From positions 17,172-81,171 of IMG/VR virus record IMGVR_UViG_3300032303_001313: 64,000 bases of DNA. One strand, written 5' to 3'. Position numbers and translations under genes: made by a program. How positions within the stretch are numbered: the first letter of the stretch is position 1; each line of letters opens with the position of its first letter. Under the pieces are notes generated by a model, which saw only the letters and a list, made by a program, of their open reading frames with translations, was not told the DNA's origin and searched no databases. Source of the DNA: a virus. Lineage: Duplodnaviria; Heunggongvirae; Uroviricota; Caudoviricetes. This document shows positions 1,842-43,061 of the stretch, in pieces.

Positions 1842-4800
1842 ATGAGCAACTATACAATAGAAGTTATTGAACAGTCTAATAGCCTAGATGTGGTAGAAGG
1901 TACTAGTGTTGCATTAGAAATTATTTCTTCTGACAATTTTATTACATTTGATACGCCTAGCGGTTATCCATTAGATGCAACTAGCGGAATTCTTCCAGTT
2001 AATAGAATGGCGTCTGGATATCCACTTTCGTATATTCCACAATCTAATACTCTGGTTTATGTTAGTGGCGATCAAATAATCAGCGGCGTTAAGTATTTTG
2101 CTGATAGTATTGTATCATCCGGTTCGTTTTCTCTAAAATCTCAACCAACTGCTTCTGGTGCAACACATTTTCCTGTTTTTATTAATGATCCATCAAGTTT
2201 ACCACGACTTGTTTACACCAGAACTGCAAACGAAATTAAGTCTGATCTTGGTATTAGTAATGTACAAAACTTAGCACTATCTGGAATTAACTTTACTGCG
2301 GGAAGTGGTATTGTTGGTGGCGGTAATTTATCTAGTCATAGAAGTTTTGATATTGGTCAAGGTGATGGAATATCCGTAGGTGCTGATAGCATTTCTGTCG
2401 ATTCAACCGTAATAAGATCAACTAACATAGATCAAATAGTAAGTGGTGTTAAAACATTCTCAACAAGCGGCGTAGTTTTAACGTCGCCAACCGGATCGTT
2501 TAAGAAAGACTTAGTACTTAGAGGCGTTGCTGGATCATCATCAAATAATAATATTGTAGTAACCCCCGTTTCTACTCTTGTTGGTAATAGAATTTATTCT
2601 CTACCAGACGTTGGTGCTGATGCCGACTTTGTTATGACTGCTGGTGGTCAAACTATAACCGGCCCCAAAGCATTTACAAACTCACTAATTTTTAATAGTG
2701 GATCATTTCAGTCTCTTAAAGTCGGAATTACTGATGTTTCAATAAGCGGACATACTCACACTTCTAGTAATATAACTAATTTTGCTTCTAGCGTAAGTGG
2801 ATTACTTCCAGTAACAAATTTACTACCTAGTGGCGGAATAGGTATAACTCAAAGCGGAACAATTTTTACAATATCAACAACTGGAACATTTGGATTAACT
2901 CAAAGTCAGGTTGATGATAGAGTAAATACAATAGTGAGTGGAGTTTACGCCCCTCTTAATAGTCCAACTTTTACTGGTACAATTAGTGGTATTAGTAAAA
3001 GCATGGTTGGTTTAAGTAATGTTGATAACACAAATGATGTTAATAAACCAGTAAGTACAGCACAAGCAACAGCAAATAGTGGAGTTCAAGCGTTCTCTAT
3101 TCAGCGAAGTAATCATACTGGTACTCAAACATCGTCTACTATTAGTGATTTCAATACTAGTGTTAGCGGCTTAGTTAATGGAATATATGCCCCTTTAAGT
3201 AGTCCTAGTTTTGCTGGAGTTCCGACGGCCCCAACAGCAAGTAGCGGTACAAATACTACTCAAATTGCTAGTACAGCATTCGTTAGAACAGAAATAAGTA
3301 ATCTAATTTCTGCTGCACCATCAGCATTGGATACTTTGAATGAATTATCGGCAGCACTAGGCAATGATCCTAATTTTGCAACTACTATTACTAACAACTT
3401 GGCAAGTAAGGCAAACTTAAGCGGGGCTACATTCACTGGAAGTGTTAGCGGCCCAAGCGGAAACTTTACTTCGTTAAAAGTTAATAACGTAGATGTTAGT
3501 TCTGTTGGTCATACCCATATATCATCAAACATAACAGATTTTAACAGCAGTGTGAGTGGATTACTTCCTGTAAGAAATGTTCTTGGTTCTGGATTTATTA
3601 GTGTTTCTGCTGTAAGTGGAAATTTTACAGTATCAACAACAGGACTTCAGCCTAGTGGAAACTATAGCGTTGTTGGTCACTCTCATACTTCTAACGACAT
3701 TACTAATTTTAACAGTAGCGTTAGTGGACTATTAACTCCCTATCAATTAGTTTTGACTAATCCAGTTACTGGCGTTGGGTCTAGTGGATACTTAAGTAGA
3801 TGGACTAGTAGTAGCAATATTAGTAGTGGAATTATTTTTGATAATGGAACTAATGTTGGTATTGGAACAACCACACCAACAGCCCAATTACAAGTTGTTG
3901 GAACAGGTTTATTTACTAATATTGATATCAATGGTTCAGTACTTGCTGGATCAGCCGCACTTACTGTAAATGGTGGAATTTTAACCCAAGGAGCATTTGT
4001 ACGTAGTTCTTCATTTACTATATATGGAGACAATACTACACAAATTTATAAACCAGATGCTTCTACTCTTGGATATGCTGTTTCTTCTACCGGATTAAAG
4101 CATTCATTTGGTTATAATAATGCTGGTACACACACTCCTTGGGCAGTTATAACATCTAGCGGAGTGGGTATCGGCACTACAACTCCAAGCGGCCAAATTC
4201 ATGTTGTTGGAACGGGAATATTTAGTAGTGGTATTTTAGCGGGTTCTGGATCACAAACTTCTCCATCTTATTCATTCTTAGGAAATACAAATACAGGATT
4301 CTATAATCCTGCAACTAATGCTCTTAGTCTAACAACTAGCGGTGTTAATAGGTTGTATATTGATCCTATTGGAAGTGTTGGTATTGGCGGTTCTCCACAA
4401 GCAGGATTTAAGTTAGATGTTATAGGAGGAGATTCAATTTTTAGGGGAGCAGTTAGTTCAAATAGTTACTTTTATGGTTATTCAATAGACTACTCGGTTG
4501 TACGATATCAGTTTAGTAATTCTCTTGCTGGTGGTGGTGCTAATCGTAGTTTTGCTTGTATTGGAGGGGGAACATTTGGTGTTGGGTTTACTGCTCCTAG
4601 CGGCAGAGTTGCTATTAGTGGTGGAGTTGCTATAGGGTCAAACTTTAATTTCACTCCCCCAACAGATGGTTTAATTGTACAGGGTAATATTGGAATAGGA
4701 ACAACAACCCCGAGCGGTCAGTTGCACGTTGTAGGTACTGGTATCTTTTCTTCTGGCCTTAGTGTTGGTTCAACTACTAATCCACGGACTGTCTATATTA

Positions 4801-5351: not shown

Positions 5352-5364
5352 TAAGGAGAAAATT

Positions 5365-8816: not shown

Positions 8817-9506
8817 ATGGCCGCACTATCGGATTACCTTGAGTCTGGTTTACTAAGTCATATCTTTAGAAACACAGCACTAACCAGACCTTCTACAATT
8901 GCTATTGCTTTAACAAGTGGTGTACCAATTGATTCTAATAATGGATCAACTATACCAGAACTACCATCGGGTGTTTTAAATGGTGGTAATTTTGTATCTA
9001 CTAACTATTCTCGTATTAATCTAGGTTCGCCAGCCTCAAGTGGTGATAATACTTGGAATTCTGTTGGCGTTGATAATACAACCGCATATAGCGTTTCTGG
9101 AACTAAGCAAAATGGATCAATGGGTTATTTTTACCCACTTTATTTGAGTGACTCAGCCGCTGCTACTGCCGGTGGAGTTGGTGCAACAACCGTAACGGTG
9201 AGTTTTAGTAAGGAATTCCCCTCAGTAAACTTCTATTCACCACAAAATCTATTCCAATCTGGAGTTAACGTAAAGTCTAACTATACAGATTATGAAGGTA
9301 ATGGATTCATCAGAAATAAGAATCAATTAGTATTCAATACCGCCCTTACTGAATGGGGTTGGGTTTCTGGCATTGCTATACTAGATAGTGCCACTATTGG
9401 ATCGGGCAATCTTCTAATGTATGCACCGCTATCAAATCCACGCTATGTTTATATCGGGGATAATATCAGATTCGATGCCAACTCATTAGAAATAAGCCTC
9501 AAATGA
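8817..9506 (+). CDS. Virion structural protein (mycobacteriophage gp80-like fibre-associated family) with internal insertion
   Basis: LSDYLE..LL.HIFR....TRP..I.IAL at the N-terminus; WG.VSGIAILD.AT.GSGNL.MYA.L...R.V..GD..RF...L.I.L at the C-terminus. Confidence 0.65.
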   Translation: MAALSDYLESGLLSHIFRNTALTRPSTIAIALTSGVPIDSNNGSTIPELPSGVLNGGNFVSTNYSRINLGSPASSGDNTWNSVGVDNTTAYSVSGTKQNGSMGYFYPLYLSDSAAATAGGVGATTVTVSFSKEFPSVNFYSPQNLFQSGVNVKSNYTDYEGNGFIRNKNQLVFNTALTEWGWVSGIAILDSATIGSGNLLMYAPLSNPRYVYIGDNIRFDANSLEISLK

Positions 9507-12500
9507 TCTTAAACAAGTCTGAACTTGTTGCTAATATAAATCAAGATATATCTGATCAAGCATACGGGCAAATCTCCCCATATGATATCAGACATAATCT
9601 GCTTGATATTATAGACTCTATTCATAACCTTACGGGCGATAAGGATTTATTTGCTGCCAATTTTGCTACTATTCCATCCGGCAATACTCAGGTGGGACAA
9701 TTAGCACTAGACTTAATCAAGACTCCCGAATCTAATAATAGTTTCAATACTGCCATTGGATATTCATCACTAAAGTCTAGTTATATTGCTTCTAAGAATA
9801 CGGCGGTTGGTGCTTATGCCCTATCTTGCAATGTTTATGGGGAAGGTAATTCTGCACTTGGTTATCACGCTCTTGCTGGAAATACTGTTGGAAATCTAAA
9901 TGTTGGTATTGGTAGTTTTGCTTTAAACAACAATAAGAGTGGCAATGGTAATATTGCTATCGGTCATGGGGCTGGATATTTTGTTGAAAAGGATGCCAGT
10001 TATAAGTTTTATTTAGCATCACATCCAGTTGATAATAACTACATATGCTCAAATCCAAGTGGTACTGGATTAATACCTCTGTTGTATGGAGATTTATCTG
10101 CAAATATATTAGGTATTGGAGTTAAAACCCTACACAATTTTGGTTCTCTACAAACTGGTGGAGATATCACACCTTCTGGCAACAACATTCTAAACCTAGG
10201 ACATTCTTCATATAAATGGAGAAATTTATTCCTATCTAGTTCTTTACTACTTGGTGATCAAGCATCCTTACTAACAGATAACTCAAGCAATATTCGTGTT
10301 AGTGGATCGCTTGTACCATTAACTAACAATATTTCTACTTTAGGATCGCCCGGTAGAAATTGGATTGCTGGATACTTTACAAACTTGACAGTCGAAGGTA
10401 CTGCGAGTATAAACAATCTAATATCATTAAATACTCAAGCATATTCTAACAAAAATCTTTACTTAGGCGTTAATAGTGGAATTAGTGGAATATATATTGA
10501 TTCTGCTCTTATTGGCGGTGGTTTATACTTAAAGTCAAGTACTAGTAAAGAATATTCTATAACATTTTATCCGGTCGCTTCTGGATTACAATCTTTTAGT
10601 GGAGATAATAGGGCTACTTGGAGAAGTAATGTAAGTTTCCAAATTCCAGAGTCTGGTTATGTAAGATCGGATAGTATACTGTCTTACGATCCAAATTCTT
10701 ATGGATTATTCTTTAATAGTGGAATAACATACTTTTCTCGTAAAGATGTTCTATCTGTAGTTCCAACAAGTAGTGGCGGTCATCTTGCTGGTATCGGTAA
10801 TGTCAATTTTATCTCTAACTCTGGACAGAATACTAACTATACATTATCAGTCTTGTCATTAGAATCTGGAGTTAATGTTAGTCAAAGATTCCTTAGTGGA
10901 GCAAAAGTTAGACAAAAAGATAATCTAAACTCAAATAAAGATAAATTACGCGGATTCGAAATCAAGTATATTGATGACGCTTATATTACAGTAGGAAGTA
11001 ATACAGATAGATTAGTAATTGGTTCATACGACAATACCTCTAAGTTTATCAACGGTGTTGTTCTTATGAAGAATTCTGATGATGGTTCAGTTTTTAGTGT
11101 TACAAATATACCGTCAGTAACAGAAAATATAGTACCAAATACAATCTTCAATGCTAGGTCTAAAAATGATTGCATAGGCCGATTTTCCTCTGAAAACAAT
11201 GGATTTTTTAAGTCTAGCATTCAGTTGCTAACAAATCTAAATTGTGAGTTAAGCGGCGTAGAGTTGGCCTATTTGAACAGAAGCGGCGTTTGCGACTTAA
11301 CAATGTTCAAAGATTCTGGAAGAATCATATATGCCAGACTTAAAGATCAGCAAATAGGCTTTTTATCAAGTGGAGTAACTAATTCTACAATTACGATTGG
11401 TCATAGCGGAATGGCTCAGTTGCCTTCTATTTCGTTAAAAGATAGTTCTTTTGTTTCTAGTACAACAATTACTGGAACGGTTGGTTATGGTAAGATTTAC
11501 AATACCCAAGATATTAAGCCATATTGTAACCAATCAAATTCTTTATTCTACATTGATGCTTCTGGCAACACTTTCAACCTAGTGGTTAATAAACTAGATA
11601 ACGTTGACGGTAGGGCGGTATACACAGATAATAACAACAATACATTCGCTGGTTATTTGTCCCCGTCTGGTCGCAAGATTAGCGGGTCGATTTTTTCCAA
11701 TACTACTTTTGGTAGTCAAGCACTCTATTCTATAAAATCTGGTTCTGGTAACTTAGCCATTGGTCATAATAGTCTTTATCATCTTGAAAGTGGCATAAAT
11801 AATATAGTTATCGGTAGAGAGTCCGGTAGTGGATTATTAGCATCAAACAAAAACATCATTCTAGGTAATCTAGCATTTAATAGAGCGGGTGCTTTAAGAT
11901 CAACTACTGACAACATTATCATCGGTAATGGTATAGGTTCTAGCCATTCTGGTTCATTTAACTTCGTCGTTGGAAACAAATCCGACGTTATTTTATTAGA
12001 AGGTAAGTTGGGGCCAGAAAATTCTGACAAGAGATTAGTTATGCCAAACGATGGCAAACTCTATCTTAACAATTTAGATAATACAGAAGGTTTATCTTTA
12101 AGAGCAAATATTATAGAAGTCATTGATAGTGGCGGTAGTAATTATCCAGAAAACTCATTGAATTTCTTATTCAGTGGAAATAATACCGCCACCTTATTAA
12201 CTCTTGATCATAATAGCAACCCTATGAGCAATAGCGTTTCTTACGCTGCTCCATCAACAGTTCGCCCGTTCGCAGAACTAAAGGGTGATTTGAAACTAAG
12301 AGGTTCAATAAGATTCAGTGATGGTACATCTCTTGAATCTTCTAGTGGTATTGCTATTGCTACAAACTTAGCCAATAGTGGAATTTCATTAGCAAATATT
12401 GCAAATAGTGGAGTTAACGTCCTTAATAGTATAATGATTGAGGGCTATATGCCAAATGGTATGGCCGCACCTTCTGTAGCATCATCACCAACTAGTGGAT

Positions 12501-12676
12501 TATTAGTAACCAAAAACTCTGCTTGGTCAAACTCTGCATCACTATTCATTTTTAATAGAGATACTACTTCTATAATTCATTCTGGAGCATATGTCGTTGC
12601 TGCTAGAATAAACGGGGAATACAAACCAATTTGGGTAAGCAGAGACAATGCCGACAGTTGTTGCTGCGACGATTAG
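9503..12676 (+). CDS. Large fibre/spike protein with YadA-head-like repeats
   Basis: Two arrays of ~14-aa N(T/S)A(I/V)G..AL repeats; N-terminus shared with ORF 16372; ends SCCCDD. Confidence 0.65.
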   Translation: MILNKSELVANINQDISDQAYGQISPYDIRHNLLDIIDSIHNLTGDKDLFAANFATIPSGNTQVGQLALDLIKTPESNNSFNTAIGYSSLKSSYIASKNTAVGAYALSCNVYGEGNSALGYHALAGNTVGNLNVGIGSFALNNNKSGNGNIAIGHGAGYFVEKDASYKFYLASHPVDNNYICSNPSGTGLIPLLYGDLSANILGIGVKTLHNFGSLQTGGDITPSGNNILNLGHSSYKWRNLFLSSSLLLGDQASLLTDNSSNIRVSGSLVPLTNNISTLGSPGRNWIAGYFTNLTVEGTASINNLISLNTQAYSNKNLYLGVNSGISGIYIDSALIGGGLYLKSSTSKEYSITFYPVASGLQSFSGDNRATWRSNVSFQIPESGYVRSDSILSYDPNSYGLFFNSGITYFSRKDVLSVVPTSSGGHLAGIGNVNFISNSGQNTNYTLSVLSLESGVNVSQRFLSGAKVRQKDNLNSNKDKLRGFEIKYIDDAYITVGSNTDRLVIGSYDNTSKFINGVVLMKNSDDGSVFSVTNIPSVTENIVPNTIFNARSKNDCIGRFSSENNGFFKSSIQLLTNLNCELSGVELAYLNRSGVCDLTMFKDSGRIIYARLKDQQIGFLSSGVTNSTITIGHSGMAQLPSISLKDSSFVSSTTITGTVGYGKIYNTQDIKPYCNQSNSLFYIDASGNTFNLVVNKLDNVDGRAVYTDNNNNTFAGYLSPSGRKISGSIFSNTTFGSQALYSIKSGSGNLAIGHNSLYHLESGINNIVIGRESGSGLLASNKNIILGNLAFNRAGALRSTTDNIIIGNGIGSSHSGSFNFVVGNKSDVILLEGKLGPENSDKRLVMPNDGKLYLNNLDNTEGLSLRANIIEVIDSGGSNYPENSLNFLFSGNNTATLLTLDHNSNPMSNSVSYAAPSTVRPFAELKGDLKLRGSIRFSDGTSLESSSGIAIATNLANSGISLANIANSGVNVLNSIMIEGYMPNGMAAPSVASSPTSGLLVTKNSAWSNSASLFIFNRDTTSIIHSGAYVVAARINGEYKPIWVSRDNADSCCCDD

Positions 12677-13099: not shown

Positions 13100-15133
13100 A
13101 TGTCAAACTATTATGGTTCAATAAATCTTCCTATTGGTTCAAAGTACTCAGTAGATGGATTACTATTAAGAGTAATTCATACTGGAGGATATTTTGACCT
13201 TAAAATGGTTCATACTCAAGACGTTGCGTTAAATAATGGGCAGACGTTTATAACTACGACAGAAAAAAGTACTCTTAATCAAACCATTACGATTAAAGGT
13301 TTTCAACTACTATGGACTAATTTCAATGTAGTGTTGCAGAATACAATACAAGTCACAACTGGTTTGTATATGGAGGATAAGGTTCTTAATACATCTAATG
13401 TTTCTACTATTGATAACGATAGTATAAACTTGCTATCTTATGAAGATGTAACTCTTAACCTGTTTAACAAGAAATTAATAATCACATTTGATAGTTTGTA
13501 TAATAAGCCTAAAAATTGTTGCTATAGTTTTGCTTCATTTAATATTGTTCCAGTTACTACGACTACTACTTCAACAACTACAACTACTACAACAACAACT
13601 AGCACTACCACAACAACTACAACTACCTCAACAACCCCATGCCCATGTTCTAACGATACTCTTGATTGTGTGTCAATTTGTATTGCTAGATGTGCAAGTA
13701 TGGGAATGTCTTATTTAGATTCTGTAACAATTCCATGCGATTGTGATAGTGGAGATAAAGATTGTTATTGTTCTTGTTTTGGAACAACTACTACGGTAGC
13801 ACCAACTACTACTACAACTACACCTGTTCCAACAACTGTACCGCCGACAACCACTACTACAGTAGCACCAACAACTACTACAACTACTACTACGGCTGCT
13901 CCTACAACAACTACTACTACAACTACAGCAGCACCGACAACTACGACTACTACTACAACTGTAGCACCAACAACAACTACGACTACAACTACTACGGCTG
14001 CTCCACTTAACTGTTACTATTGTGATCCACAAAATGGGTGTGTGCCAGTATTCATACCAAATCCCACAGTATCTAATTGTGCAGCATATGGTATGTATAG
14101 TAGTAGTTCTGAGTGCGATGATTGTGCTATTGAAGTATACTGTGATTCAGAGAATGGTTGCATTAATTCTGGAACATTTTCTAAAAAATCGGACAACCCA
14201 AATGGCAAATATGCTTCAAGTTCATCTGATTTTTCACTTTGTAACTATTGTTATAAAGATTATTCGTGCGTTAATTATTCATGTATTGAAATTGGGTTAT
14301 TTTATTGGCATGAAGGCCCGAAGTTTGTTACCGGCATAGTAGATGGTCAGCCGGGAGAGATAAACGTTCCATTAGAAGCCTGTAAGATTATTTGTACCAC
14401 AACAACAACGACTACCACTACTACGACAACTACAACGACTACTACGACAACAACAACTACTACAACTACAACGACTCCAGCCCCCACTACAACAACTACA
14501 ACAACTACTACTTTACCACCACCCACAACTACTACCACAACGACTCCAGCACCAACTACAACTCCATCGCCAACTACAACTCCACCACCTACAACAACGA
14601 CTCCAGCACCAATTGATCCATGTGCAACATCTGGATTATGTCAAGTTGGAGAGAATCTTGGCGTTCCAGTATGTTGTCCATGTGGATCAAGTTATGTTAA
14701 TGGAATGTGTTGTCCAGCAGACGCTGGCGATTGTGAGCCTCCAGACAACCCTTGGCTTCCACCAATTCCTTGTGGCCCATGCAATACTTCTAATTGTGAA
14801 GTATGCTCAGACGGGGTATGTAGGGATAAATGTAATTCTAGTAAATGTTATGGTTGTAATGGTAATGGAGATTGTGTTTACCAATGCGACAGATGTAGTA
14901 CTTGTATAGGAGGTCAATGCGTAGGTTGTGGAGAAGGCGAAGTATGTTGTCCAACCATTAATATAGAAACTAATACTGGGTGCTGGGTTGAATCAGAATT
15001 AATAATAGAAGCACTTATTGGGCCATGTCAAGAAGGTCTAACTTGTTGCCCAGATGGTAATTGTCCATTCCCGAATTATGTTTGCTGTGCGTGGGGAGGT
15101 TGTGCAATGACACCATGTGACTGTCTAATTTGA
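13100..15133 (+). CDS. Mucin-like Thr/Pro-tract protein with three Cys-rich modules
   Basis: Three poly-Thr tracts with mixed ACN codons alternate with Cys-dense modules. No signal peptide visible. Confidence 0.8.
   Translation: MSNYYGSINLPIGSKYSVDGLLLRVIHTGGYFDLKMVHTQDVALNNGQTFITTTEKSTLNQTITIKGFQLLWTNFNVVLQNTIQVTTGLYMEDKVLNTSNVSTIDNDSINLLSYEDVTLNLFNKKLIITFDSLYNKPKNCCYSFASFNIVPVTTTTTSTTTTTTTTTSTTTTTTTTSTTPCPCSNDTLDCVSICIARCASMGMSYLDSVTIPCDCDSGDKDCYCSCFGTTTTVAPTTTTTTPVPTTVPPTTTTTVAPTTTTTTTTAAPTTTTTTTTAAPTTTTTTTTVAPTTTTTTTTTAAPLNCYYCDPQNGCVPVFIPNPTVSNCAAYGMYSSSSECDDCAIEVYCDSENGCINSGTFSKKSDNPNGKYASSSSDFSLCNYCYKDYSCVNYSCIEIGLFYWHEGPKFVTGIVDGQPGEINVPLEACKIICTTTTTTTTTTTTTTTTTTTTTTTTTTTPAPTTTTTTTTTLPPPTTTTTTTPAPTTTPSPTTTPPPTTTTPAPIDPCATSGLCQVGENLGVPVCCPCGSSYVNGMCCPADAGDCEPPDNPWLPPIPCGPCNTSNCEVCSDGVCRDKCNSSKCYGCNGNGDCVYQCDRCSTCIGGQCVGCGEGEVCCPTINIETNTGCWVESELIIEALIGPCQEGLTCCPDGNCPFPNYVCCAWGGCAMTPCDCLI
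13555..13635 (+). repeat. Thr-codon tract 1
   Basis: Run of ACA/ACT/ACC/ACG codons. Confidence 0.9.
13784..14000 (+). repeat. Thr tract 2 with (V/A)AP/VP spacers
   Basis: Repeated T(4-9)-(A/V)-A-P units. Confidence 0.9.
14396..14610 (+). repeat. Thr/Pro tract 3
   Basis: Long uninterrupted Thr run followed by PAP/PPP spacers. Confidence 0.9.
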
Positions 15134-32136: not shown

Positions 32137-35100
32137 CCTGTTTAGTTTGTAATATAGACAATAGAACTAGATTTTCAACAGGTAGTAAACTGTCGGCCAC
32201 AGTTTCTGTTGATAATGGTTTAAGAGCAAGATTGTCTGCAATAAGTAAAGTAACTCCTAAGAACGGTGTTACTAGAGGATGCAAAGCCAATATCAGTTGC
32301 GTATCAAGCCTTGATTCTACTCCAAATGTTACTTTTGGGCCTAAAGAAGAATTATCCCACTTTGTAAATCTAGGCATTAAAGCATCTCCAGTTTGTAGTA
32401 TTCTTGGTAATGCTAGAAATAAGTCAGAATCTTCTCTTACAAATAAAGTGCCTGTTGATAAGTTTGTTGGTAAACCAAACTTCTACGCATCTTCAAAACT
32501 ATATCCAATTGGTGATATTTCCTTTAAGAACAAACTTTATAACACCAACATTGATGTACTTAATGGTCAATCAAATTCTATAAATTTGTATAGTAATATC
32601 GATGAAGGCGTTTTCGTTGGAGATTACACAGAAAATAGTAAGGTTGGTACATTATTATCTGATGATAGTCAATCTCTTATATTCCCAAGCGAAGTATTTC
32701 AGTCTGGCGACTTACAATATAAATTTAGAGTAACATATCCATTTGCTAATCCGGCTAATAGTTATCTTGCATTAAGAGCGTCGGCCTCTCTAGATGACTA
32801 CTCAGCCAGAAAGCCCCAAGGCTATAAAATCTATGATGTTCAGTTACAAGACCCTAGTGGAAACCTAATTGTACAATATGAAGATATTGATGTAAGGGGC
32901 GATAACAATTTTACAACATATCTATCTCAATCCAAAATTAACAAGGCTAATCAGCCAACTTGGAATTCAGATTTTCCATACATGGATTCTGGAAATCCTC
33001 TTAATTTACAATCACAACCATATTCGCTTACGTTAAACATTGGATATATTTGCGACCAATTTCCATTCGATCCTAAGTTCGATTTAGGATACGAACGTTC
33101 TTGTATTATTTCTAGCGGAACCCCTCACCCATTTAGATCATTATCTATTTCCGCAATTGAGATTGGAAACAGCGGCGGGGTTGGAGTAATCAAAAACAAT
33201 TATCTCAACTTTTTCTCTCAAGTAACTAATCAACCAAACTTACTATCAAGAAACCTATTACCAACTAGGTTGTTAGTTTCTAGTTTTGATAATGGTATTT
33301 ATCCGCAATCAACTAGTTTATGGACAGATTCTGTTGTTACTAATGCTAACGACAGTAACTCTTATTCATTACTTAACAAGATTAGAACTAATAGTAATAA
33401 CGAATTCATCACTCTTGACTATACTAATATTCAAAATAGTGGTAGATTAATCCTTAAGTTTGATACTAAGCCAGAACCTCCGTCTTACGACAAGTATGTT
33501 GGTGGTTCATTCTCTTTTGGTAATGATGGGTTTGAAAACGCCGACTTTGTAAATTATCTAGCAGATGATAACTTTTTCAATATCGAAAAGATTGAACTCA
33601 AAATAACAGCAAAGAAATCTGTTGGATCGGTTGATTATCCTATTGATGTGGTTGGATATAGTGATGACAAAATACTTTGCGTTACAAGTCCAGTGGGCGG
33701 ATTTTTGCAGAATAGCGGCACTTATGAATATGATCGTAATAATGTAGTAAACGCTTCTGGATTTAATAGCACCGCATTCTCAATTTCTAATACTGCTATT
33801 TCTGATCAGTCTCAGTATTTTAACGGCGATGCTTCTTATTATGGCGATCATTATGTTCTTAGTAGTGCAATTGTTAACTCTACTTCATTCACAGAGTATA
33901 CAGTTCCACTACAAATAACAGAGAACCCATTTTCTGTTGGATATAACAACTATTCATCTAGTTCATTTTTTGAGAACTTGTTTTTAGATATTGCCCCCAT
34001 TCCAAGCGGAGCATCTATATCAAATGTAAAACTTGTTGTATATTACAAACCATCAAATGGTTTGATGATGTACGGATTTGGAAGTCCAAATAATAAAGTA
34101 TCTGGTAGAAAAACACTAACTTTAGTACCGGGATCAAATGTTGGTGGAAATAGGATAAACACTATAGTTTATCCCGATACAAAATTTATTGGATTTTCAA
34201 ACCCGCTTGATATTAAAACTAATTATGCAAGAAGGTGGCGCGGCGTTGATGGAAATGTTGTGATTAGTGGCGATTTTAATCCATCTATTTATGATCTTTC
34301 ATTCAATCACAAGTCTGCAAATACCCCATTCCTTACCTCGTATATTGATTTTTCTAACGCTAGCGGAACTGGTATTTACGATCATAGAAATACATATGTA
34401 GGTAAATCAGTCATTAATCTCAATAAACTCTCTACTTTAGGGTGGAGATTTTCATCTAGTCAGTTGTTTGATAATAGTCCTACTACCGCATATACTTCTA
34501 TCTCATGGTCTAATCAAAGAAGAATATATGACTCATTTGATAATGTAGTTAGAACTTCTTCTGGCTCTCAGATAGAACTGTTCTCTTTAAATAACACTTC
34601 TCTTGCTAGTGGATTTGCACTTTATTTTAGGTATTGTCCAGATAAGGTTTCTACTAATGATTTTAACAATCATACTATTTTATCTTACGAAAATGGTAGT
34701 GATTGGAGTATGGCGTTAGTATCAGAAAATGGAAATTTGAAGTTTAATGTAAAAAAGTCTGATAATTCTATTGTAACTATTATTGATACTCAAGCATTAA
34801 ACTTATACGCTTTACCAGTACCAATCTTAATAACTTACAATAATGACAATACAAAAACATTTAAGTTATATACTGAAAATGATTTACTCTCAGGATTCAC
34901 AAATCTCCGTGCATCTTCTGCTAGCGGCATAATTCCAAAAAGTCTATCAAACTCATCCTTACGCATTGGGTACTCCGGTGCATATGGTGGCACGATTATT
35001 CCAATGTTCGTTACCGAAATTGGATGCTCTAATGGTTATTGCAATATAACTCAAAGTTCGACTAATCCTAGTTTGAAACAGACAACTGCTGCTGAATTCT

Positions 35101-38100
35101 TCAATTCATTTAGAATGCAGTATGCATCCACAAATGGAAACAACGTAAGATCAAATTTACATTCTTATATAGATGATGATATTTCTTTGTGGAAACTTGG
35201 CGACTTCAAAGTTTGTGATTTTTCACCAGATTTTAGTTTCTTCACTAAGAGTGATGGCAAAGACTATTTAGGTTTTAATCTAAAGCATCATGGTTCTGGA
35301 TACTCGCAAGTAGCAACTTTACCGCTACCAAGTAGTGTTAATCTATCTGGCGTGGCTTATCACTCTCAATTAGAAAGTGATTTTTTAAGATTCAATTTAT
35401 CCAATATTCCTTCTGTTGATTCTGGAAGATTTTATGCCGCTGCTCCAAGAATCTGTAAGACATTACCAAAGGGTTATCAGTTTAATGACGAAGCCATTTG
35501 TGTTGATACCATAGTTGAACACGAAACATATAATGATTTATTGTGGTCAGATGGTAAGGTTGGCCCAAAACTAATAGTTAGCCTGTACTCACCAACCTTA
35601 AATGATCCTAATCGTCCAAGTAAAGATTTTGGACTTATTAGTAGATCAACCCATTATCTTGAACCTTCTGGTTGTATTAGAAAATTAACTAGTAAGTTCA
35701 CATTTAATGATTTATTAGATACATCTGAACCTTGGGCGTCTTTTGATAAGGAAATATACTCACAAGAATTCAAAGAGAGATTTTTCACAAAAGATATTGA
35801 TAGTATGTTCTTACAGTATGATTTAGTTTATCCATCTGGAAAACCATTTACTTCTAATGTTAAGATTCATAGTGCTAATGTAAGACTAGATGATGCTATT
35901 ATCCATCTAGAAGAGAATAATAATTCTCTAAATATGTTCAACAGCGGCGATGCTTATCAATTAAAACAACTAAACCTATTTTCCCTATTTAATAGTGGAA
36001 CTGTTAGTAATTCTGGTTTCCACTTATACGTTAACGGTAGCGTTCCATCAACTTCGTCATTAAATGTATTCATCAATAGTAGTGGATATTTTGTAAACCC
36101 ACAAACTGTTAATCTATATACAGCATCAATAGGTAAAACTTATGAATCATTAGGAATATATGCCAGTGGAGCATTAAGAGTAGAGGCAAGTCTACCACTA
36201 ATTGCAAGCGGGTTTATACATACCAATAACAATAATCTCAATATTTATACTTTAGGCCCGAATGCAAACGAAGGCTCAATATCAGAGTTCGTTGGTCTTA
36301 GAGTTCTGGCTTCCAATTCATTAGTTGATTATTATCCAGAATCTAGTATGTCTCTGTCTATTGCTGGAGAGGAACTTGCTAGTACAAATGCATTTTCTAT
36401 ACTATATGTGGGCGGTATAGGAACAATTGGGTATAGTAATAATGACATTTCGTTATTTACCCTTAATTACCCCATTTCTTCTAAGTTAGCCGACAATAGT
36501 GCGTCGATAAATTGGACAAATCTAAATACCGGCTCAAATATAATGGCTAGTGATAATTCTTACGCTTATGTAGACTCTGACGATAATATTCGTGGGGTAG
36601 ATTTAGTATGTCAAGGTAATTGTTCATCTATAGGAGCGTGTGTAGAGATTCCTGTAGAAATTCATGGTATTAAGTGGTATGATCCCCCAATCTGTGTAGA
36701 CGGTGGAATATTCAGAGCAAAGAATACATATACTAATCTTTCTTATCCAAGCGGGTCATTTAGGCATACATTTGAATCTAAACAAGATAGTTTAATTACT
36801 GAAACCGGCGACTTTATTATTGCAAATAACAATGATATTATTACTATAAATATTCCATCATCATCTGTATATGATCCCATGCCATATAGTGGTCATTTCT
36901 ATGGTATTAAGAAGTATACTGGTTTAGCCCCTAATCTACCATATTTTGTTACTATAACTGGCAGAACCGGATCAGAAAAACCTATAGATATTCCTACTGA
37001 AATAGTCGAAATTGAATATAACAAGTATGAAAGTGACGATCCAAATGTTGATTATAATGGATTAAAAGTTCTACCCCCCAATTACAATCAAAATGATTAT
37101 TTTGGTAAATCTGTTGCTTCTAAAGAAAATGTATTAGCAGTAGGCTCACCATTTAGATCGCTTCCATATGAAAACGGATCATTACAAAATGCCGGTGCTG
37201 TTTTCTTATACAAGAGAAATGATAGACCAGAAGGGTATGAGTGGCCCCTAAATAATTACAAATCAGATTGGTCGCTTGATCAAGTTATTACTTTACCATC
37301 GGGCTTAATCAAAGACTATTCTATTTCATCACAAATAGAAGTCCCCGGATTACCATTCTTAGCCACACAAACAAAGTGGTTTGTTGGTCAAGAAGGTAGA
37401 CAATTTGGACATTCTATTGACTTATCGATCAATAAAGAAAATTCTAAACAAATACTAGTCGTTGGAGGCCCAAGTGCAAAATGGACTCCTAGAGAGTTTG
37501 ATAATAGCACTCCTTCTGGAGTTGGTATTGGTTTAATGATCTTTACTGACGAGTTTGAGCCAGTTATACCGGCCCCAACTTTTGGTAATCCATTCAGAGT
37601 CATTACATACCAAAATGTATTAGACGCTATCAACGGTAAAGACTTAGTATTTAACTATTTCTCTAATCCTAGAGTAAAATTTGACACTAAACTAATAATT
37701 TGTCAACCAATTGCTGATAGTACAGATATAGTCTCTCCACCGTTTCCAGATAAGCCAGACTTCATAACTCTAAAGTCAATCAGTAGAAACTATGGATATG
37801 GCAACGATCCAAATAAAACTTCAAAGATTGTAAATGATATGAAATCAGCATTCTTTGAAGCATTTCCTAATAGTATTCCTCCAATCTTAGGACTATATGT
37901 AGACAATAGTAATTCTTTAGGAAGAGAAGCACTAGAGCCAGCAATTGATCAATTTATTGACTTCTACAAGAGTTATAGTTTTTCTGGAGGATTGGTGGAC
38001 TCATTTGGAGTTAGATCGTCTGGTCAAGTTATAGAATACACTCCAGATTCATATGATGCAGAAAACTGGATTGAAATGTCTAAGACTATTCTATCAGAGG

Positions 38101-41100
38101 TTTTAGATACTGGTAATCTTGTCAATAATGATCAAATGAGATTCATTAGTAATACTGTCGGAACATTCAATAGTAACTTGGGCGATTTTAATCTACCTCC
38201 AGAGAGTGGTGGAAAAGTATATGTATTTGAAAAAGAAAGCGGTCATTGGAACCTAATACAAGAGATAAATTCACCTAATGTTACATATTCTACTCCAGAT
38301 CGTTTCGGACACTCGGTAAGTATTAGTGATAATGGCGAAGTAATTGCTATTGGTTCTCCATATATTAATCAAGCCGTTACTATTCTTGAAAGAAAAGATG
38401 TTAAGAAATCTTACTATCAACAACTTCAATCGTGGGTTGATAATAATAGACCTGACAAATATGGATCATATGAATCGTCTGACGAACTATACTTAGCCTT
38501 AGATGCTACAGATAAGTTCTTATCTCGTAAAGAGTTAAACATTGAAGAATATCAAACTGTTCACACTTTTGATTATTCTAATATGCAGCCACAAGGTAAT
38601 TGGTCATTTATTCCAAATGCCGTCGCCCCAACGTCTAGATTAGGATATAGTGTTGACGTTAATGAGGATGGAAGCGTAGTGGTTGCAAGTGCGCCAACAG
38701 ATAGTCTTAATCCATACAATGACGCAGACGTTTACTACAATTTCAATAATACATATACTGGTAAATTATATAGAACAGGATATAACAACCCAAATTCGTC
38801 AGGAGTTCCTACCGGTACTGTAAATAGTACTTGGTCATCTAGCGTAAATGCTGGATCAATTCACGTTTTTGAATCAAGAAAGTATTACCCGCACAATACA
38901 GTAATTGAATATGGAAGGTTTGGAAACCTCCATGAAATGATTAGCGATAATACTCCAGATTCTGGACACTTTGGATATTTATCACAAATCTTTGAAGATA
39001 AAAACTTCACTAAGACCGAATTCTCTGATTCTGAAATTCCAACAGAAGCAGGGTTGGCTTTCATTATCACTCCCGCCGTTGATGCAATTACAAATAGCGA
39101 TGAAGTATTCGACAATATTTCTAATTGGTTAGCGTTGGGCGATAGAAACCTTGTATTAGTAGCAAATGATCCAATTTGGGAAGCGGGTGGTAAGTATCAA
39201 AAATCAAATGAAATACTTAACACACTATTGTCTAAATTGAATTCTCGCATGAGAATTGTGCCAGCAAGAACTTCTTATGAGTCTTTATCAACTGGATACA
39301 ATGATTTCAACAACATTCTACCGTCTTTCATCCCACAAGGATCAACACCTACATATGTACAAAGATTGCAGTTAAGAGGAAGCGGTGTTGCTGATGTTAA
39401 GATGTATTTTGGATATACTGATCAAATGTCTTGTGCAGAAGTCACTGATTGTTCGCCCGATCCAGTTAAAGTACAAATTCAAACCAAGTGCGAGATGCCT
39501 TTACGAAATTATGGCGATTTACGCGCTAAGTGGAACGAATCTTGTTGCACAAATGGAGGCATTTTAATATATGAACGTAATTGGCCCCTAGTATTTGGAT
39601 CATACGCTCCAGAATGTGGCGATACTTCATTCTCACCTAACCCATTAAAGAATTTCGAACCAGTTCCACTATTAGCAGCGGCTGAAAAGGTTCAAAATAC
39701 AGTAGTCTATCCTGCGGTTCCTGCACAATTCAAAGCATTCCCCAAATATGATACTATAGATTTGGGTCAGACATACTATGAATTTGGTAGCCCAATTGAT
39801 GATGACGCTTCTTTTGTTTACAATTCTGGCAATCAAGCATCACTAAATATTACTAATACATTAAGTTCCGAACTATTCTATAGACTATCTGAGGGTATTT
39901 TACAAGCCAGAGCAATTCCAAAGATTGATATAACTCCATATATCGACAAACAACTTGTATCAGACACTACTAATTACATAGTAGAACAGAAATATAATGA
40001 TTCATCTTCTGTAATTGTAATTGCTGGAAATGCAACAGAATCAGAAGATGTTCTTTACTCTGGTGCTGGCGATCAAAATGTCAAATTATACGTTAACCTT
40101 GTATCAAAAACAAGTAGTCAGAAGGGTTATTCTGATATTGCTAAACTTTACGGCGAGTTCAAATCGTCAAATCCAAAGTCTATACTAAAGACAGTATTTA
40201 CTCAGAACGGCAACTATGTCACCGAAAATCTAAATCCAAATCAGTTAAATAGTACCTATAACGTCGCTTGGATTGCTGGTATAAGTAGTCAGCCATCCAA
40301 TGAAGACGTAGAATTCATAACAAATTGGCTATCTCTTGGTAATAAGAAATTAGTGATAACTTGCGACAACGTTAGTGATGACGCTTCTGTTAGACTAGCA
40401 AGTTCTCTCCACGCTCAAGAATTATGTGAGAGACTAAATCTAAACATTAAAGTTGTTAAACTCCCCATTCTTGATACATACATAGAGAAGTCTGTTGGAA
40501 CAGTTTCTATAAATCAAGATCATCAAGCGGGTGGTTCGTTATTCCTAAAACCAAACCGCATTCTTTCGTTCCAAAATTTATCTCAATTCTATCCATTATC
40601 TGCTGGCGATTCTGTTATCTCAGTAGCATATAATTCTGAGAAAATATATGATGATGTTGTTAGAGAAAATGTAAACAGATATTGGGATACCAACGCCGGT
40701 ATTGCTAGGATAACTATCCCAACAATTCAAGGTTCTGGATACAAGTTATTTTTTACCGCCCTCTCTGATAATTTATCGCAAATAATTCCTCTAGATGTAT
40801 TTGTAGATAATGCTACTGTTGCACCTTCGTTATCTCCAGATATAGGCTCATTGTCTATTTTTGAGTTGGATAAAGACGGAGTTCAATTTATTTCTAAAGA
40901 GTTAAGTACCAGCGTTCCAAACATTAGATTGCAGGGTTCAGAAACTAAGTCTGTTAATATACAGGCTAATTCTGACTCAGTAAATGTATATATTTCTTCT
41001 GCTATACCAAGAGCGGCAGAACAATCTGCATTTATTCCTACTACTATGAAATTAGTTGGTGTTTCTGGAGTTAACATTCCAATTCATGAGAAAATTGCTC

Positions 41101-43061
41101 TATCTTCTATACAAGTTCAAAATGGGCAGTTTGATTATGTGAAAATCAGCGATGAACAACCAGAATATTCCGAGACAATAGAGGTTGTTAGATCAATCAG
41201 CACTGATAACTCAAAGTATTGTGCTAACGGATGTGAATTCTTAGGTAATCAATTAATAGAAGACGGCCCAGTTATTGCTGCACAAGAAATAGAGATAATG
41301 TCTCCATTTAATGCGGGTGTAGCAAGATCAAGAATCACTGTCATTACTGACTCTAGCATATTGCAGGGTAGATTTGTCGCTGACGAGGACGGTAGTATTC
41401 CACAAGAAACCTACGCTTTCATAAGAAGTCTTTATCCCAATACAGAATTCCCATCTACTATAATGGGCCGACAATTTAATGTATATAACAAGATAGTTTC
41501 TCCAGAGAGAGGAAGTCCATCTAAATACTTCCAAAAAGCACAACTATCTGGAATAAACAATAGATTTGGAGGAAGTGGAACTTTAACCGCCCCGCTTAAT
41601 CAATATGAAGCAAACTATTTACCGCAATATATAAGTAGACCAGACGTTCCTTGGAAAGATGAAACCGATGAAGATAGAATCAATGAGATTAAGAACCATT
41701 TCATTAGCGGTTTCCTAAGTAGCCAGATTAATCATGCATCTACTGCTAAATTTAGTGGCATTATAGATGGAACAATGTATACTGACGCCTCAGTTGCTGG
41801 AGGACTACCACAACTAGTTAAAGATAAAGGATATGATTATCTAGAATTACCATCTGGATACTTGGGCGATTTATTCGGATATGCAGTATGCGTAAGAGGA
41901 AATAAGATCGTTGTTGGTTCTCCATTCTCAGGATTTGATACCGAAACAATTACTCCTTGGAATAGTGGCATCAATCTTTTCTTAGGTAACGATGGCGGTG
42001 CTGGTGCTGCTTATATGTTCGAAAAATCTGGAGAATTATCTTGGTCTTGTGTCCGCAAATTCAGACCAGATTCTCTAATGGGTCAAGTTAGTGGAGTTAA
42101 TTCTGATCAATTCGGACGATCAATAGATATGCAATATGACACATTAGTAATTGGATCGCCAAATCATGATTATGCTAACTTCTATAATATTGAGTATAGC
42201 GATGGGGCTTTTGCTAAAAAGAATTTCAATCCACAGTTTGATACTCCACATAGAACAATATCTGATGGTGGACTCTTAAACACAAGAGATGAAGTAGAAG
42301 ACTTATTCTATAATAATTTTGGGGCAATTTACCTATATGAAAATAAGATAGTTGATTGGGAGAATAAGAAGCAATCATGGAAACTTATAGAGAAATCAGT
42401 CGCCAATCCTCCAGCAAGCGGGGTTAAATATGGTCAAAATGTATGCTTAAGTAGACCTAGAAGATCAGATGCTGATTACTCAATATTTGGAGGATCAACA
42501 CAGTCTGGTTGTGTTTATATTCAAGATATTATGCTTAGAAAGCAATCTCCTTCTCTAAGAAACAATAACGCTTGGATAGACGCTAAAGTATTTGGAGATG
42601 GAGATGGTGTTGTAAATCTAAGATTCAGTAATAGTGGTAATTACTATTATGGAAGCGGTAATATTCTACCAAATTCCAAGGGTGAGATATTCCTAGAGGT
42701 TTCTGGACAAGACCCGTCTACGAAGGGTTTTATCGCTCACCACCCCTATATTGAGTCCGTATTAGGCTATTATCAATATGGTAAATTATTAGATGGTGGA
42801 ATGAACCTTTATACTAGCGGAATGCCACTATCGCCAACTGCCCAATTACCCCTCATTTTAGATGCTGAAAAATCTTCATATGTGTATAGTAGTGTAGGAA
42901 TGTTCAACGACGGTGTTATTGGCGTAGCGTCCAATTCTGGCTTAAATCTGTTTAATTACACAGAAAGCGGAGTTGTAGTAGGCTCATCTGGCCTAACATT
43001 AGTCACTAGCGGGACATGGAATTCATCGGAATCTCTGAATTTAAGAATTAGAGGGAAATAA
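32133..43061 (+). CDS. Giant virion protein with LamG-like domain and FG-GAP (integrin-alpha-type) propeller blades
   Basis: 3642 aa directly after the tape measure. FG.S(V/I).....(V/I)(A/V)(V/I)G(S/G)P blades at about 37095, 37400, 38300, 38640, 41870 and 42110. Confidence 0.7.
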   Translation: MTCLVCNIDNRTRFSTGSKLSATVSVDNGLRARLSAISKVTPKNGVTRGCKANISCVSSLDSTPNVTFGPKEELSHFVNLGIKASPVCSILGNARNKSESSLTNKVPVDKFVGKPNFYASSKLYPIGDISFKNKLYNTNIDVLNGQSNSINLYSNIDEGVFVGDYTENSKVGTLLSDDSQSLIFPSEVFQSGDLQYKFRVTYPFANPANSYLALRASASLDDYSARKPQGYKIYDVQLQDPSGNLIVQYEDIDVRGDNNFTTYLSQSKINKANQPTWNSDFPYMDSGNPLNLQSQPYSLTLNIGYICDQFPFDPKFDLGYERSCIISSGTPHPFRSLSISAIEIGNSGGVGVIKNNYLNFFSQVTNQPNLLSRNLLPTRLLVSSFDNGIYPQSTSLWTDSVVTNANDSNSYSLLNKIRTNSNNEFITLDYTNIQNSGRLILKFDTKPEPPSYDKYVGGSFSFGNDGFENADFVNYLADDNFFNIEKIELKITAKKSVGSVDYPIDVVGYSDDKILCVTSPVGGFLQNSGTYEYDRNNVVNASGFNSTAFSISNTAISDQSQYFNGDASYYGDHYVLSSAIVNSTSFTEYTVPLQITENPFSVGYNNYSSSSFFENLFLDIAPIPSGASISNVKLVVYYKPSNGLMMYGFGSPNNKVSGRKTLTLVPGSNVGGNRINTIVYPDTKFIGFSNPLDIKTNYARRWRGVDGNVVISGDFNPSIYDLSFNHKSANTPFLTSYIDFSNASGTGIYDHRNTYVGKSVINLNKLSTLGWRFSSSQLFDNSPTTAYTSISWSNQRRIYDSFDNVVRTSSGSQIELFSLNNTSLASGFALYFRYCPDKVSTNDFNNHTILSYENGSDWSMALVSENGNLKFNVKKSDNSIVTIIDTQALNLYALPVPILITYNNDNTKTFKLYTENDLLSGFTNLRASSASGIIPKSLSNSSLRIGYSGAYGGTIIPMFVTEIGCSNGYCNITQSSTNPSLKQTTAAEFFNSFRMQYASTNGNNVRSNLHSYIDDDISLWKLGDFKVCDFSPDFSFFTKSDGKDYLGFNLKHHGSGYSQVATLPLPSSVNLSGVAYHSQLESDFLRFNLSNIPSVDSGRFYAAAPRICKTLPKGYQFNDEAICVDTIVEHETYNDLLWSDGKVGPKLIVSLYSPTLNDPNRPSKDFGLISRSTHYLEPSGCIRKLTSKFTFNDLLDTSEPWASFDKEIYSQEFKERFFTKDIDSMFLQYDLVYPSGKPFTSNVKIHSANVRLDDAIIHLEENNNSLNMFNSGDAYQLKQLNLFSLFNSGTVSNSGFHLYVNGSVPSTSSLNVFINSSGYFVNPQTVNLYTASIGKTYESLGIYASGALRVEASLPLIASGFIHTNNNNLNIYTLGPNANEGSISEFVGLRVLASNSLVDYYPESSMSLSIAGEELASTNAFSILYVGGIGTIGYSNNDISLFTLNYPISSKLADNSASINWTNLNTGSNIMASDNSYAYVDSDDNIRGVDLVCQGNCSSIGACVEIPVEIHGIKWYDPPICVDGGIFRAKNTYTNLSYPSGSFRHTFESKQDSLITETGDFIIANNNDIITINIPSSSVYDPMPYSGHFYGIKKYTGLAPNLPYFVTITGRTGSEKPIDIPTEIVEIEYNKYESDDPNVDYNGLKVLPPNYNQNDYFGKSVASKENVLAVGSPFRSLPYENGSLQNAGAVFLYKRNDRPEGYEWPLNNYKSDWSLDQVITLPSGLIKDYSISSQIEVPGLPFLATQTKWFVGQEGRQFGHSIDLSINKENSKQILVVGGPSAKWTPREFDNSTPSGVGIGLMIFTDEFEPVIPAPTFGNPFRVITYQNVLDAINGKDLVFNYFSNPRVKFDTKLIICQPIADSTDIVSPPFPDKPDFITLKSISRNYGYGNDPNKTSKIVNDMKSAFFEAFPNSIPPILGLYVDNSNSLGREALEPAIDQFIDFYKSYSFSGGLVDSFGVRSSGQVIEYTPDSYDAENWIEMSKTILSEVLDTGNLVNNDQMRFISNTVGTFNSNLGDFNLPPESGGKVYVFEKESGHWNLIQEINSPNVTYSTPDRFGHSVSISDNGEVIAIGSPYINQAVTILERKDVKKSYYQQLQSWVDNNRPDKYGSYESSDELYLALDATDKFLSRKELNIEEYQTVHTFDYSNMQPQGNWSFIPNAVAPTSRLGYSVDVNEDGSVVVASAPTDSLNPYNDADVYYNFNNTYTGKLYRTGYNNPNSSGVPTGTVNSTWSSSVNAGSIHVFESRKYYPHNTVIEYGRFGNLHEMISDNTPDSGHFGYLSQIFEDKNFTKTEFSDSEIPTEAGLAFIITPAVDAITNSDEVFDNISNWLALGDRNLVLVANDPIWEAGGKYQKSNEILNTLLSKLNSRMRIVPARTSYESLSTGYNDFNNILPSFIPQGSTPTYVQRLQLRGSGVADVKMYFGYTDQMSCAEVTDCSPDPVKVQIQTKCEMPLRNYGDLRAKWNESCCTNGGILIYERNWPLVFGSYAPECGDTSFSPNPLKNFEPVPLLAAAEKVQNTVVYPAVPAQFKAFPKYDTIDLGQTYYEFGSPIDDDASFVYNSGNQASLNITNTLSSELFYRLSEGILQARAIPKIDITPYIDKQLVSDTTNYIVEQKYNDSSSVIVIAGNATESEDVLYSGAGDQNVKLYVNLVSKTSSQKGYSDIAKLYGEFKSSNPKSILKTVFTQNGNYVTENLNPNQLNSTYNVAWIAGISSQPSNEDVEFITNWLSLGNKKLVITCDNVSDDASVRLASSLHAQELCERLNLNIKVVKLPILDTYIEKSVGTVSINQDHQAGGSLFLKPNRILSFQNLSQFYPLSAGDSVISVAYNSEKIYDDVVRENVNRYWDTNAGIARITIPTIQGSGYKLFFTALSDNLSQIIPLDVFVDNATVAPSLSPDIGSLSIFELDKDGVQFISKELSTSVPNIRLQGSETKSVNIQANSDSVNVYISSAIPRAAEQSAFIPTTMKLVGVSGVNIPIHEKIALSSIQVQNGQFDYVKISDEQPEYSETIEVVRSISTDNSKYCANGCEFLGNQLIEDGPVIAAQEIEIMSPFNAGVARSRITVITDSSILQGRFVADEDGSIPQETYAFIRSLYPNTEFPSTIMGRQFNVYNKIVSPERGSPSKYFQKAQLSGINNRFGGSGTLTAPLNQYEANYLPQYISRPDVPWKDETDEDRINEIKNHFISGFLSSQINHASTAKFSGIIDGTMYTDASVAGGLPQLVKDKGYDYLELPSGYLGDLFGYAVCVRGNKIVVGSPFSGFDTETITPWNSGINLFLGNDGGAGAAYMFEKSGELSWSCVRKFRPDSLMGQVSGVNSDQFGRSIDMQYDTLVIGSPNHDYANFYNIEYSDGAFAKKNFNPQFDTPHRTISDGGLLNTRDEVEDLFYNNFGAIYLYENKIVDWENKKQSWKLIEKSVANPPASGVKYGQNVCLSRPRRSDADYSIFGGSTQSGCVYIQDIMLRKQSPSLRNNNAWIDAKVFGDGDGVVNLRFSNSGNYYYGSGNILPNSKGEIFLEVSGQDPSTKGFIAHHPYIESVLGYYQYGKLLDGGMNLYTSGMPLSPTAQLPLILDAEKSSYVYSSVGMFNDGVIGVASNSGLNLFNYTESGVVVGSSGLTLVTSGTWNSSESLNLRIRGK

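Follow-up and report, generated by a model that had tools for sequence, protein, structure and literature searches.

A protein-level excess of Ser-Gly in the fibre-type virion proteins of an uncultured tailed phage, and readings of its origin

Why does a single dipeptide, Ser-Gly (SG), recur so often in the fibre-type proteins of a phage whose virion genes stand next to a large set of predicted glycosyltransferase (GT) genes? The question is raised by a 64,000-nucleotide stretch (hereafter the window), positions 17,172 to 81,171 of IMG/VR virus record IMGVR_UViG_3300032303_001313, which is a single virus record of 145,171 bp with a guanine-plus-cytosine (GC) content of ~36%. The plus strand of the window carries a virion module comprising a portal open reading frame (ORF), a fibre, the capsid, an adaptor-like protein, a spike, the tape measure, a giant FG-GAP protein and further large tail proteins, and a minus-strand glycan gene cluster converges on this module. 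A first-pass annotation of the sequence had proposed that SG is enriched in surface-exposed virion proteins as a glycosylation sequon. We observed that the excess is real and stronger than the earlier hand counts could show; it is specific to the coding frame, is accompanied by conservation of Ser before Gly, falls into turn and repeat contexts, and depends on clade and module. With about even confidence, we interpret it as a structural feature, in which Ser-Gly serves the repeats and tight turns of trimeric fibres in the clade of the focal phage.

The proteins on which the counts rest are listed below with their window coordinates; aa denotes amino acids, GS the reversed pair Gly-Ser, and O/E the ratio of observed to expected counts.

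1842..5351, plus strand: tail fibre of 1169 aa with a conserved collar/PTR domain (tail-fibre PHROGs at residues 369-548, and Pfam PTR); 43 SG, 17 GS
8817..9506, plus strand: fibre/tail adaptor-like protein of 229 aa, after the capsid gene; 8 SG against 3.1 expected
9503..12676, plus strand: spike, or trimeric fibre, of 1057 aa; 36 SG, 15 GS, SG O/E 2.39, z 6.2
16372..17277, plus strand: fibre-like protein of 301 aa, phrog_11355 (tail fibre); 9 SG against 4.1 expected
17274..19028, plus strand: virion protein of 584 aa; 14 SG, 12 of them before residue 290, in the N-terminal half
32133..43061, plus strand: giant tail protein of 3642 aa with Pfam FG-GAP_2 repeats; 62 SG, 35 GS, SG O/E 1.96, z 6.0
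25204..32136, plus strand: tape measure of 2310 aa (tape-measure PHROGs), a control; 22 SG against 20.9 expected, not enriched
45227..53371, plus strand: two large distal tail proteins of 1585 and 1125 aa, without SG excess

When the six named proteins at the head of this list were pooled, SG occurred 172 times against 82.4 expected from within-protein shuffles (O/E 2.09, z 11.5), and was by a wide margin the most deviant of all 400 dipeptides. In the same pool, GS stood at 0.99, Asn-Gly (NG) at 0.74, Asp-Gly (DG) at 0.92 and Thr-Gly (TG) at 0.79. The first-pass annotation had named an equal enrichment of the other pairs, as a generic turn preference would give, as a ground for dropping its proposal; the excess is not shared by them. 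The fibre by itself reached O/E 1.99 (z 5.4), and five proteins of the focal genome lie between 1.96 and 2.95. Significance, whose loss on shuffling the annotation had named as another such ground, was kept under block shuffling as well: permuting residues inside blocks of 15, 30 and 60 aa gave SG z scores of 10.6-11.8 and GS z scores of ~0, and we rejected regional composition as the cause, as z stays at ~11 throughout. Across the whole virion module (1842-54157), taken without any selection of proteins, SG was counted 254 times against 151 expected (1.68), with GS at 0.83. Self-BLAST for long internal duplications found none. In the fibre, F-N-S-S-V-S-G-L-L is present four times and G-T-T-T-P-S-G-Q twice; long internal duplication was rejected as the source of the excess, because only such short motifs recur and they account for at most ~8 of the 43 fibre SG.

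All of the hand counts behind the first-pass annotation were reproduced exactly, both for the SG-rich proteins listed above (GS included for the fibre and the spike) and for the protein encoded from 21672 (7 SG), the tape measure (22), the capsid (2), the portal ORF (2) and the 330-aa GT4 enzyme described below (0); the stock motifs that it quoted, TASSGTNTT and GTTTPSGQ, are also present. Its division into SG-rich surface proteins and SG-poor internal ones was borne out in part. The tape measure, the capsid (2 SG against 2.0 expected) and the portal are indeed flat, but so are the two distal tail proteins (O/E 1.06 for 45227-49984 and 0.53 for 49994-53371), for which neither Pfam nor PHROGs gave a family match.

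The SG-coding pentamers AGCGG, AGTGG and TCTGG were found overwhelmingly in coding frame 0 and without strand skew. Therefore, the excess acts at the level of the protein and not of the DNA, and we rejected a DNA motif, Chi-like or otherwise, as its explanation.

How far this property extends was examined among relatives of the focal phage. A capsid protein 76-83% identical to the focal one is encoded on more than 600 IMG/VR contigs. Cultured relatives were sought by tblastn among 50,697 phage records, and neither the capsid nor the GT4 or the CgeB-like protein had a match there. Pooled over 73 homologues, the adaptor family has an SG O/E of 2.74 and a GS O/E of 0.88. Homologues of the spike form a continuum of SG O/E from 0.58 to 3.26; the correlation of these values with relatedness to the focal phage (rho 0.69) is much stronger than that with GC content (rho ~-0.4). 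The modules also behave separately: one group of relatives combines a three-fold enriched adaptor with a flat neighbouring spike; all lineages examined have an SG-rich N-terminal domain in their version of the 17274 protein; and partial homologues of the 3642-aa protein reach only 1.30 (G007) and 1.67 (G006). A further relative (G016, L256:15168-17636) encodes an 823-aa protein with 32 SG and 1 GS, arranged in a 7/11-residue repeat with V-S-G-E-L and A-S-G-A-L units, of which the focal genome has no homologue. These data show that the SG excess is clade- and module-specific and not genome-wide.

We compared these values with those of other proteins. Ordinary bacterial and prophage ORFs (n=933) have SG O/E of 1.16-1.23 and GS O/E of 0.86-1.05; a mild bias of SG over GS is a general property of proteins. 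Prophage tail fibres that share the collar domain (n=71) showed 1.35 for SG, with a maximum of 1.85, and 1.11 for GS, 0.99 for NG and 1.34 for DG. Metagenomic fibres (n=120) gave SG 1.59 and GS 0.77, and the pooled long and short fibres, whiskers and outer baseplate proteins of T4 gave SG 1.01 and GS 1.03. In the fibres of Pelagibacter phage HTVC112P and Methylophilales phage Venkman, SG lies at 0.5-1.65 and Thr-Gly is frequent instead. The T4, HTVC112P, Venkman and prophage fibres led us to reject SG excess as a generic fibre trait, and in the literature we found no description of an SG bias in phage fibres.

The cultured marine phage HTVC112P (L174) deserves a separate remark. Its fibre gene, which shares the N-terminal domain of the focal spike, is followed directly by a glycosyltransferase gene, and its genome also has an FkbM methyltransferase; the fibre is rich in Thr-Gly (21), not in Ser-Gly.

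To count the conservation of SG we aligned 43 adaptors and, likewise, 39 spikes. Ser was kept in 62% of cases where the following Gly is retained, as against 38% for Ser before other retained residues, and no such gain was seen for Thr, Asn or Asp before Gly. Where the Ser of SG is replaced, Thr is the commonest substitute (25%), followed by Asp (12%) and Asn (10%). In 19 columns SG is conserved among the SG-rich lineages; there the SG-poor ones have SG, GG, TG, KG, DG or any residue followed by Asn or Asp, and Gly is second in 54%. Such pairs are ordinary in turns, and the columns are generic turn positions.

The flanks of SG are hydrophobic, in 51% of cases at -3 and in 43-48% at +2 to +4, against a background of 33%. 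Pro at -1 is three-fold enriched (23 against 7.5 expected), and charged residues are depleted around SG: Glu at +2, +3, +4 and +6, and Asp at -3, -2 and +3, with Glu mildly enriched at -1 (9 against 5.4). Secondary structure was taken from the DSSP strings of two AlphaFold models, those of the adaptor (mean predicted local distance difference test score, pLDDT, 89) and of the spike (pLDDT 69). In these models 64% of SG fall in coil, 14% in strand and 7% in helix, the same distribution as for other pairs with Gly second, and many occupy predicted links of 2-4 residues between strands, for example at spike residues 406, 605, 876 and 891. In the adaptor the SG sites are spread over helices, strands and loops of the model.

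The top fold match of the adaptor model is the fibre-tail adaptor of phage GP4 (8jou), and because of this match the 1057-aa spike is probably a fibre joined to the tail through the adaptor. The spike model resembles the Bdellovibrio fibres Bd2133 and Bd3182 and T4 gp34; a PDB sequence search with the spike profile gave no match. The C-terminus of the spike has an N-S-G repeat of ~11 residues, which is similar to the repeat of the 823-aa protein of G016. A C-terminal repeat of the 1842-5351 fibre that contains SG aligns to the solved Bd2133 fibre (PDB 8ond); in the deposited sequence of that fibre, one repeat retains S-G-N and its sister repeats read T-G or A-G.

These observations argue for a structural role. 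The reading rests on the protein-level excess, the hydrophobic and Pro context, the placement in inter-strand coil and the turn pairs at aligned columns, and also on the Bd2133 alignment that keeps SG, the resemblance of spike and fibre to trimeric fibres, the modular nature of the excess and the mild general preference for SG over GS. Ser-Gly would then be a selected, protein-level element of trimeric fibre, spike and adaptor modules. It would sit at tight turns beside beta-strands, often preceded by Pro (-1) and flanked by hydrophobic residues at -3 and from +2 to +4, or at fixed positions of short repeats, such as F-N-S-S-V-S-G-L-L and T-P-S-G-Q in the fibre, the ~11-residue N-S-G repeat of the spike and the 7/11-residue V-S-G/A-S-G repeat of G016. 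A small Ser followed by a flexible Gly could allow close packing or chain reversal, and we infer that folding or packing, rather than modification, is the selective reason.

Several observations weigh against this interpretation. The well-studied T4 fibres and outer baseplate proteins have no comparable excess (1.01), prophage fibres pool at 1.35 with a maximum of 1.85, and none of 58 control proteins with at least five expected SG reached 2.0, so that the focal excess of 2.0-2.9 lies above every control. NG and DG, which are classical turn pairs, show no enrichment. SG occurs in several secondary-structure contexts, and no single structural motif covers all sites. Finally, the Ser-specific conservation, with Thr as the top substitute, would also fit a need for a hydroxyl group.

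The genome is under strong constraints at the DNA level, and we asked how far these could reach into its dipeptides. In the 145-kb genome, restriction-type palindromes are extremely avoided: AGCT occurs 3 times against ~390-480 expected, GCGC 23 against ~150, CCWGG 3 against 97 and GGWCC 1 against 97, and of the 64 hexamer palindromes, 33 are present once or not at all. Avoidance of CCWGG is family-wide, while that of AGCT and GGWCC is specific to the focal genome (related loci have 4.5-5.4 AGCT and ~0.5 GGWCC per kb). Pro-Gly (PG, O/E 0.15) and Gly-Pro (GP, 0.38) are depleted, because CCWGG and GGWCC sites would arise from CCA or CCT before GGN and from GGA or GGT before CCN; the Pro codons that precede Gly are CCC (65%) and CCG (33%), together 98%, with CCT at 2% and CCA at 0%. 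Moreover, codons of the form NNA are avoided before GGN for every amino acid, genome-wide, which lowers Lys-Gly, Glu-Gly and Gln-Gly. The Ser codons follow this rule: AGY makes up 59% of them in SG against 29% elsewhere, and TCA 2% against 25%. A codon artefact was rejected, since the surplus of AGC/AGT and the deficit of TCA before GGN are a genome-wide codon-pair effect that is not specific to the SG-rich proteins.

The excess could in principle be a by-product of such restriction-site avoidance, codon-pair bias and pressure towards A+T, with SG filling the positions before Gly that the loss of PG and of Lys-Gly, Glu-Gly and Gln-Gly sets free. This is very improbable and already largely refuted. 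Codons for Asn, Asp, Thr, Ala and Val are equally unconstrained, yet these residues are not enriched before Gly; the PG deficit is ~23 pairs against an SG surplus of ~90; and the SG excess is just as large in relatives that show no avoidance of AGCT or GGWCC. A+T pressure was rejected on the weak GC correlation of the spikes and on the equal GC content (34-37%) of the SG-poorest and the SG-rich ones, and T4, which is similarly AT-rich, has no SG excess.

The glycan gene cassette that converges on the virion module occupies the end of the window:

56501..63986, minus strand: glycan cassette with a CgeB-like GT, two FkbM methyltransferases, a GT-A enzyme, a DUF6564 protein and a 330-aa GT4 (Pfam, PHROGs)

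The cassette runs past the window with two GT1-family proteins of 369 and 563 aa. The soluble glycan enzymes that the phage encodes beside its virion genes comprise four GT1/GT4 proteins, the CgeB-like GT, the GT-A and the two FkbM methyltransferases. Among the cassette proteins we found no hydrophobic segment of transmembrane grade and no flippase or polyprenyl-phosphate transferase; because all are soluble and these two functions are missing, the acceptor of the cassette is probably cytoplasmic. Soluble predicted glycosyltransferases that adjoin virion genes are what a phage virion glycosylation system needs. An HNH/homing-endonuclease-like gene (phrog_559, window 55737-56504) lies at the conserved edge of the variable cassette.

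In 62 related contigs (loci L187-L248), the cassette has hypervariable content between conserved flanking genes. The CgeB-like/FkbM/GT-A module of the focal phage is shared with only one other contig (L236); other cassettes hold an epimerase, a GT2, a double nucleotidyltransferase, an aldolase and a TylF-type methyltransferase (G010), or RgpF and DUF5672 proteins (G007), while the 369-aa and 563-aa GT1 proteins are nearly universal among the relatives. Every relative examined, including the SG-poor G006 and G007, in which neither adaptor nor spike shows an SG excess, has a glycan cassette with GTs at the equivalent position, and because none is without one, co-occurrence of cassette and SG cannot discriminate. 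The full-length 330-aa GT4 is present in seven SG-rich genomes and missing from G006 and G007. It was rejected as an SG-specific enzyme, for it is missing also in G017 and G018, yet their 17274 homologues have 14 SG against 4.4 expected and 23 against 11.8; with or without the GT4, G015, G017 and G018 all encode an SG-rich homologue of this protein. The suggestion of the first-pass annotation that SG bias might follow the GT set across relatives was thus contradicted from both sides, by SG-poor phages with GTs and by SG-rich phages without the GT4. As for its sequon proposal, a soluble cassette of several GTs does adjoin the tail genes, but nothing ties that cassette to SG.

We nevertheless weighed the possibility that SG provides the acceptor Ser of a phage-encoded, cytoplasmic O-glycosylation, in which the adjacent cassette builds a glycan coat on fibre-like virion proteins. 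The position of the cassette beside the tail genes is conserved, and its at least five GTs and its sugar methyltransferases are all soluble. The nearly universal 369-aa and 563-aa GT1 proteins, set against the hypervariable rest, resemble conserved initiators followed by variable elongation; the extreme avoidance of restriction sites suggests that the DNA is not sugar-modified, which would leave protein as a plausible target; the Ser of SG is specifically conserved, with Thr as its commonest substitute; and NG, DG and TG are not enriched. Against this stand the cassettes of the SG-poor G006 and G007 and the missing GT4 of the SG-rich G017 and G018. Several SG also lie in predicted helices, strands or coiled-repeat units; the large distal tail proteins are not enriched; the SG-bearing motif is found in the deposited sequence of the solved Bd2133 fibre as well; a target of more than 250 sites in each set of virion proteins would be unusually dense; and the 145-kb genome gave no match to the GT14/Branch family (PF02485, which control genomes do match), to GT9 (PF01075) or to the GT41 catalytic domain (PF13844). 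On balance we regard this reading as unlikely. The same doubt applies to its fullest form, a large uncultured aquatic phage family in which the 369-aa and 563-aa GT1 initiators would glycosylate Ser-Gly turns and the hypervariable cassette would elongate the glycans into a variable coat on the host-recognition apparatus.

The hydroxyl group of Ser could matter in another way, through a different modification or through chemical stability: in long-lived aquatic virions, Ser-Gly may give stable turns in place of the deamidation-prone Asn-Gly and the isomerisation-prone Asp-Gly. In agreement with this, the focal proteins, compared with prophage fibres, have less NG (0.74) and DG (0.92) and more SG, homologues often have Asn or Asp at SG columns, and the AGY codons preferred for Ser in SG are one transition away from AAY (Asn). 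However, the AGY preference before GGN is genome-wide and explained by the codon-pair and restriction-site constraints described above, the combined NG and DG deficit of ~17 pairs is far below the SG surplus of ~90, and for a different modification no enzyme emerged as a candidate. We consider such a role quite improbable, more so than glycosylation. What probability remains beyond the structural, glycosylation, other-Ser and DNA-level readings we leave to the unexplained.

Two further loci bear on the glycan and fibre genes of this phage, the first of them in the window:

13100..15133, plus strand: Thr-rich protein (23% Thr; Thr fraction 0.232) in the head/neck operon; 3 SG against 3.0 expected

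Of 80 related loci, only 3 have a homologue of this protein. Should virion proteins be glycosylated by the cassette, the Thr-rich protein would be a more conventional candidate for an O-glycan acceptor. Outside the window and far from the main virion module, a second fibre-like gene cluster (genome positions 104887-110061, minus strand) holds an Ig-domain protein, a 430-aa protein with an Mtd_N-type domain and small SG-rich ORFs, and lies ~1.4 kb from a further GT4 gene (111439-112512). The 430-aa protein has 15 SG against 5.1 expected.

What the excess means depends on its cause. If SG pairs are glycan acceptors, they would represent a second, widespread kind of phage virion glycosylation, one that combines a simple sequon with a hypervariable locus for the glycan; this would matter for host recognition, for the stability of virions in water and for the way in which metagenomic phage genomes are read. 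If they are structural, which we deem the likelier case, less is gained, though still something of use: the excess is then a compositional mark of fibre modules, specific to the clade, by which fibre-type proteins without homologues could be spotted. In addition, restriction-site avoidance visibly reshapes the dipeptides of a phage proteome, as the loss of PG and GP illustrates, and dipeptide-based arguments for a sequon must allow for it.

The focal proteins were compared with known glycosylation systems and with trimeric fibres. With eukaryotic glycosaminoglycan xylosylation, the analogy drawn by the first-pass annotation, the focal proteins share the Ser-Gly dipeptide alone; the acidic flanks are absent, acidic residues being depleted around the focal SG, and the genome has no GT14/Branch-family enzyme, so that we abandoned the analogy. 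Che8-type mycobacteriophages have phage-encoded GTs beside their structural genes and glycosylate their virions, with the capsid and the tail tube as reported targets. The focal phage is similar in that its glycosyltransferases adjoin the virion module, and differs in that its capsid has no SG excess and its cassette is much larger and hypervariable. The autotransporter heptosyltransferases TibC and AAH modify Ser in the strand-loop-strand units of TibA and AIDA-I. In concept this comes near to the focal case, as many Ser at the turns of a repetitive, beta-rich surface protein are modified by a cytoplasmic enzyme that follows no strict linear sequon; however, a GT9-type heptosyltransferase is lacking in the focal genome. 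As for the turns of trimeric fibres (Bd2133, PDB 8ond; T4 gp34, PDB 4uxg), the focal proteins are unlike them in using Ser almost exclusively and conserving it, with no enrichment of NG or DG, in reaching O/E values of 2-3 where T4 has 1.0 and prophage fibres 1.35, and in placing some sites in predicted helices or in 7/11-residue repeats. They are like them in that SG lies mostly in short coil links with hydrophobic strand flanks, as in a beta-turn or bulge with Gly second, in that the aligned positions of relatives hold other pairs ending in Gly or in Asn/Asp, and in that a repeat of the Bd2133 fibre keeps SG itself.

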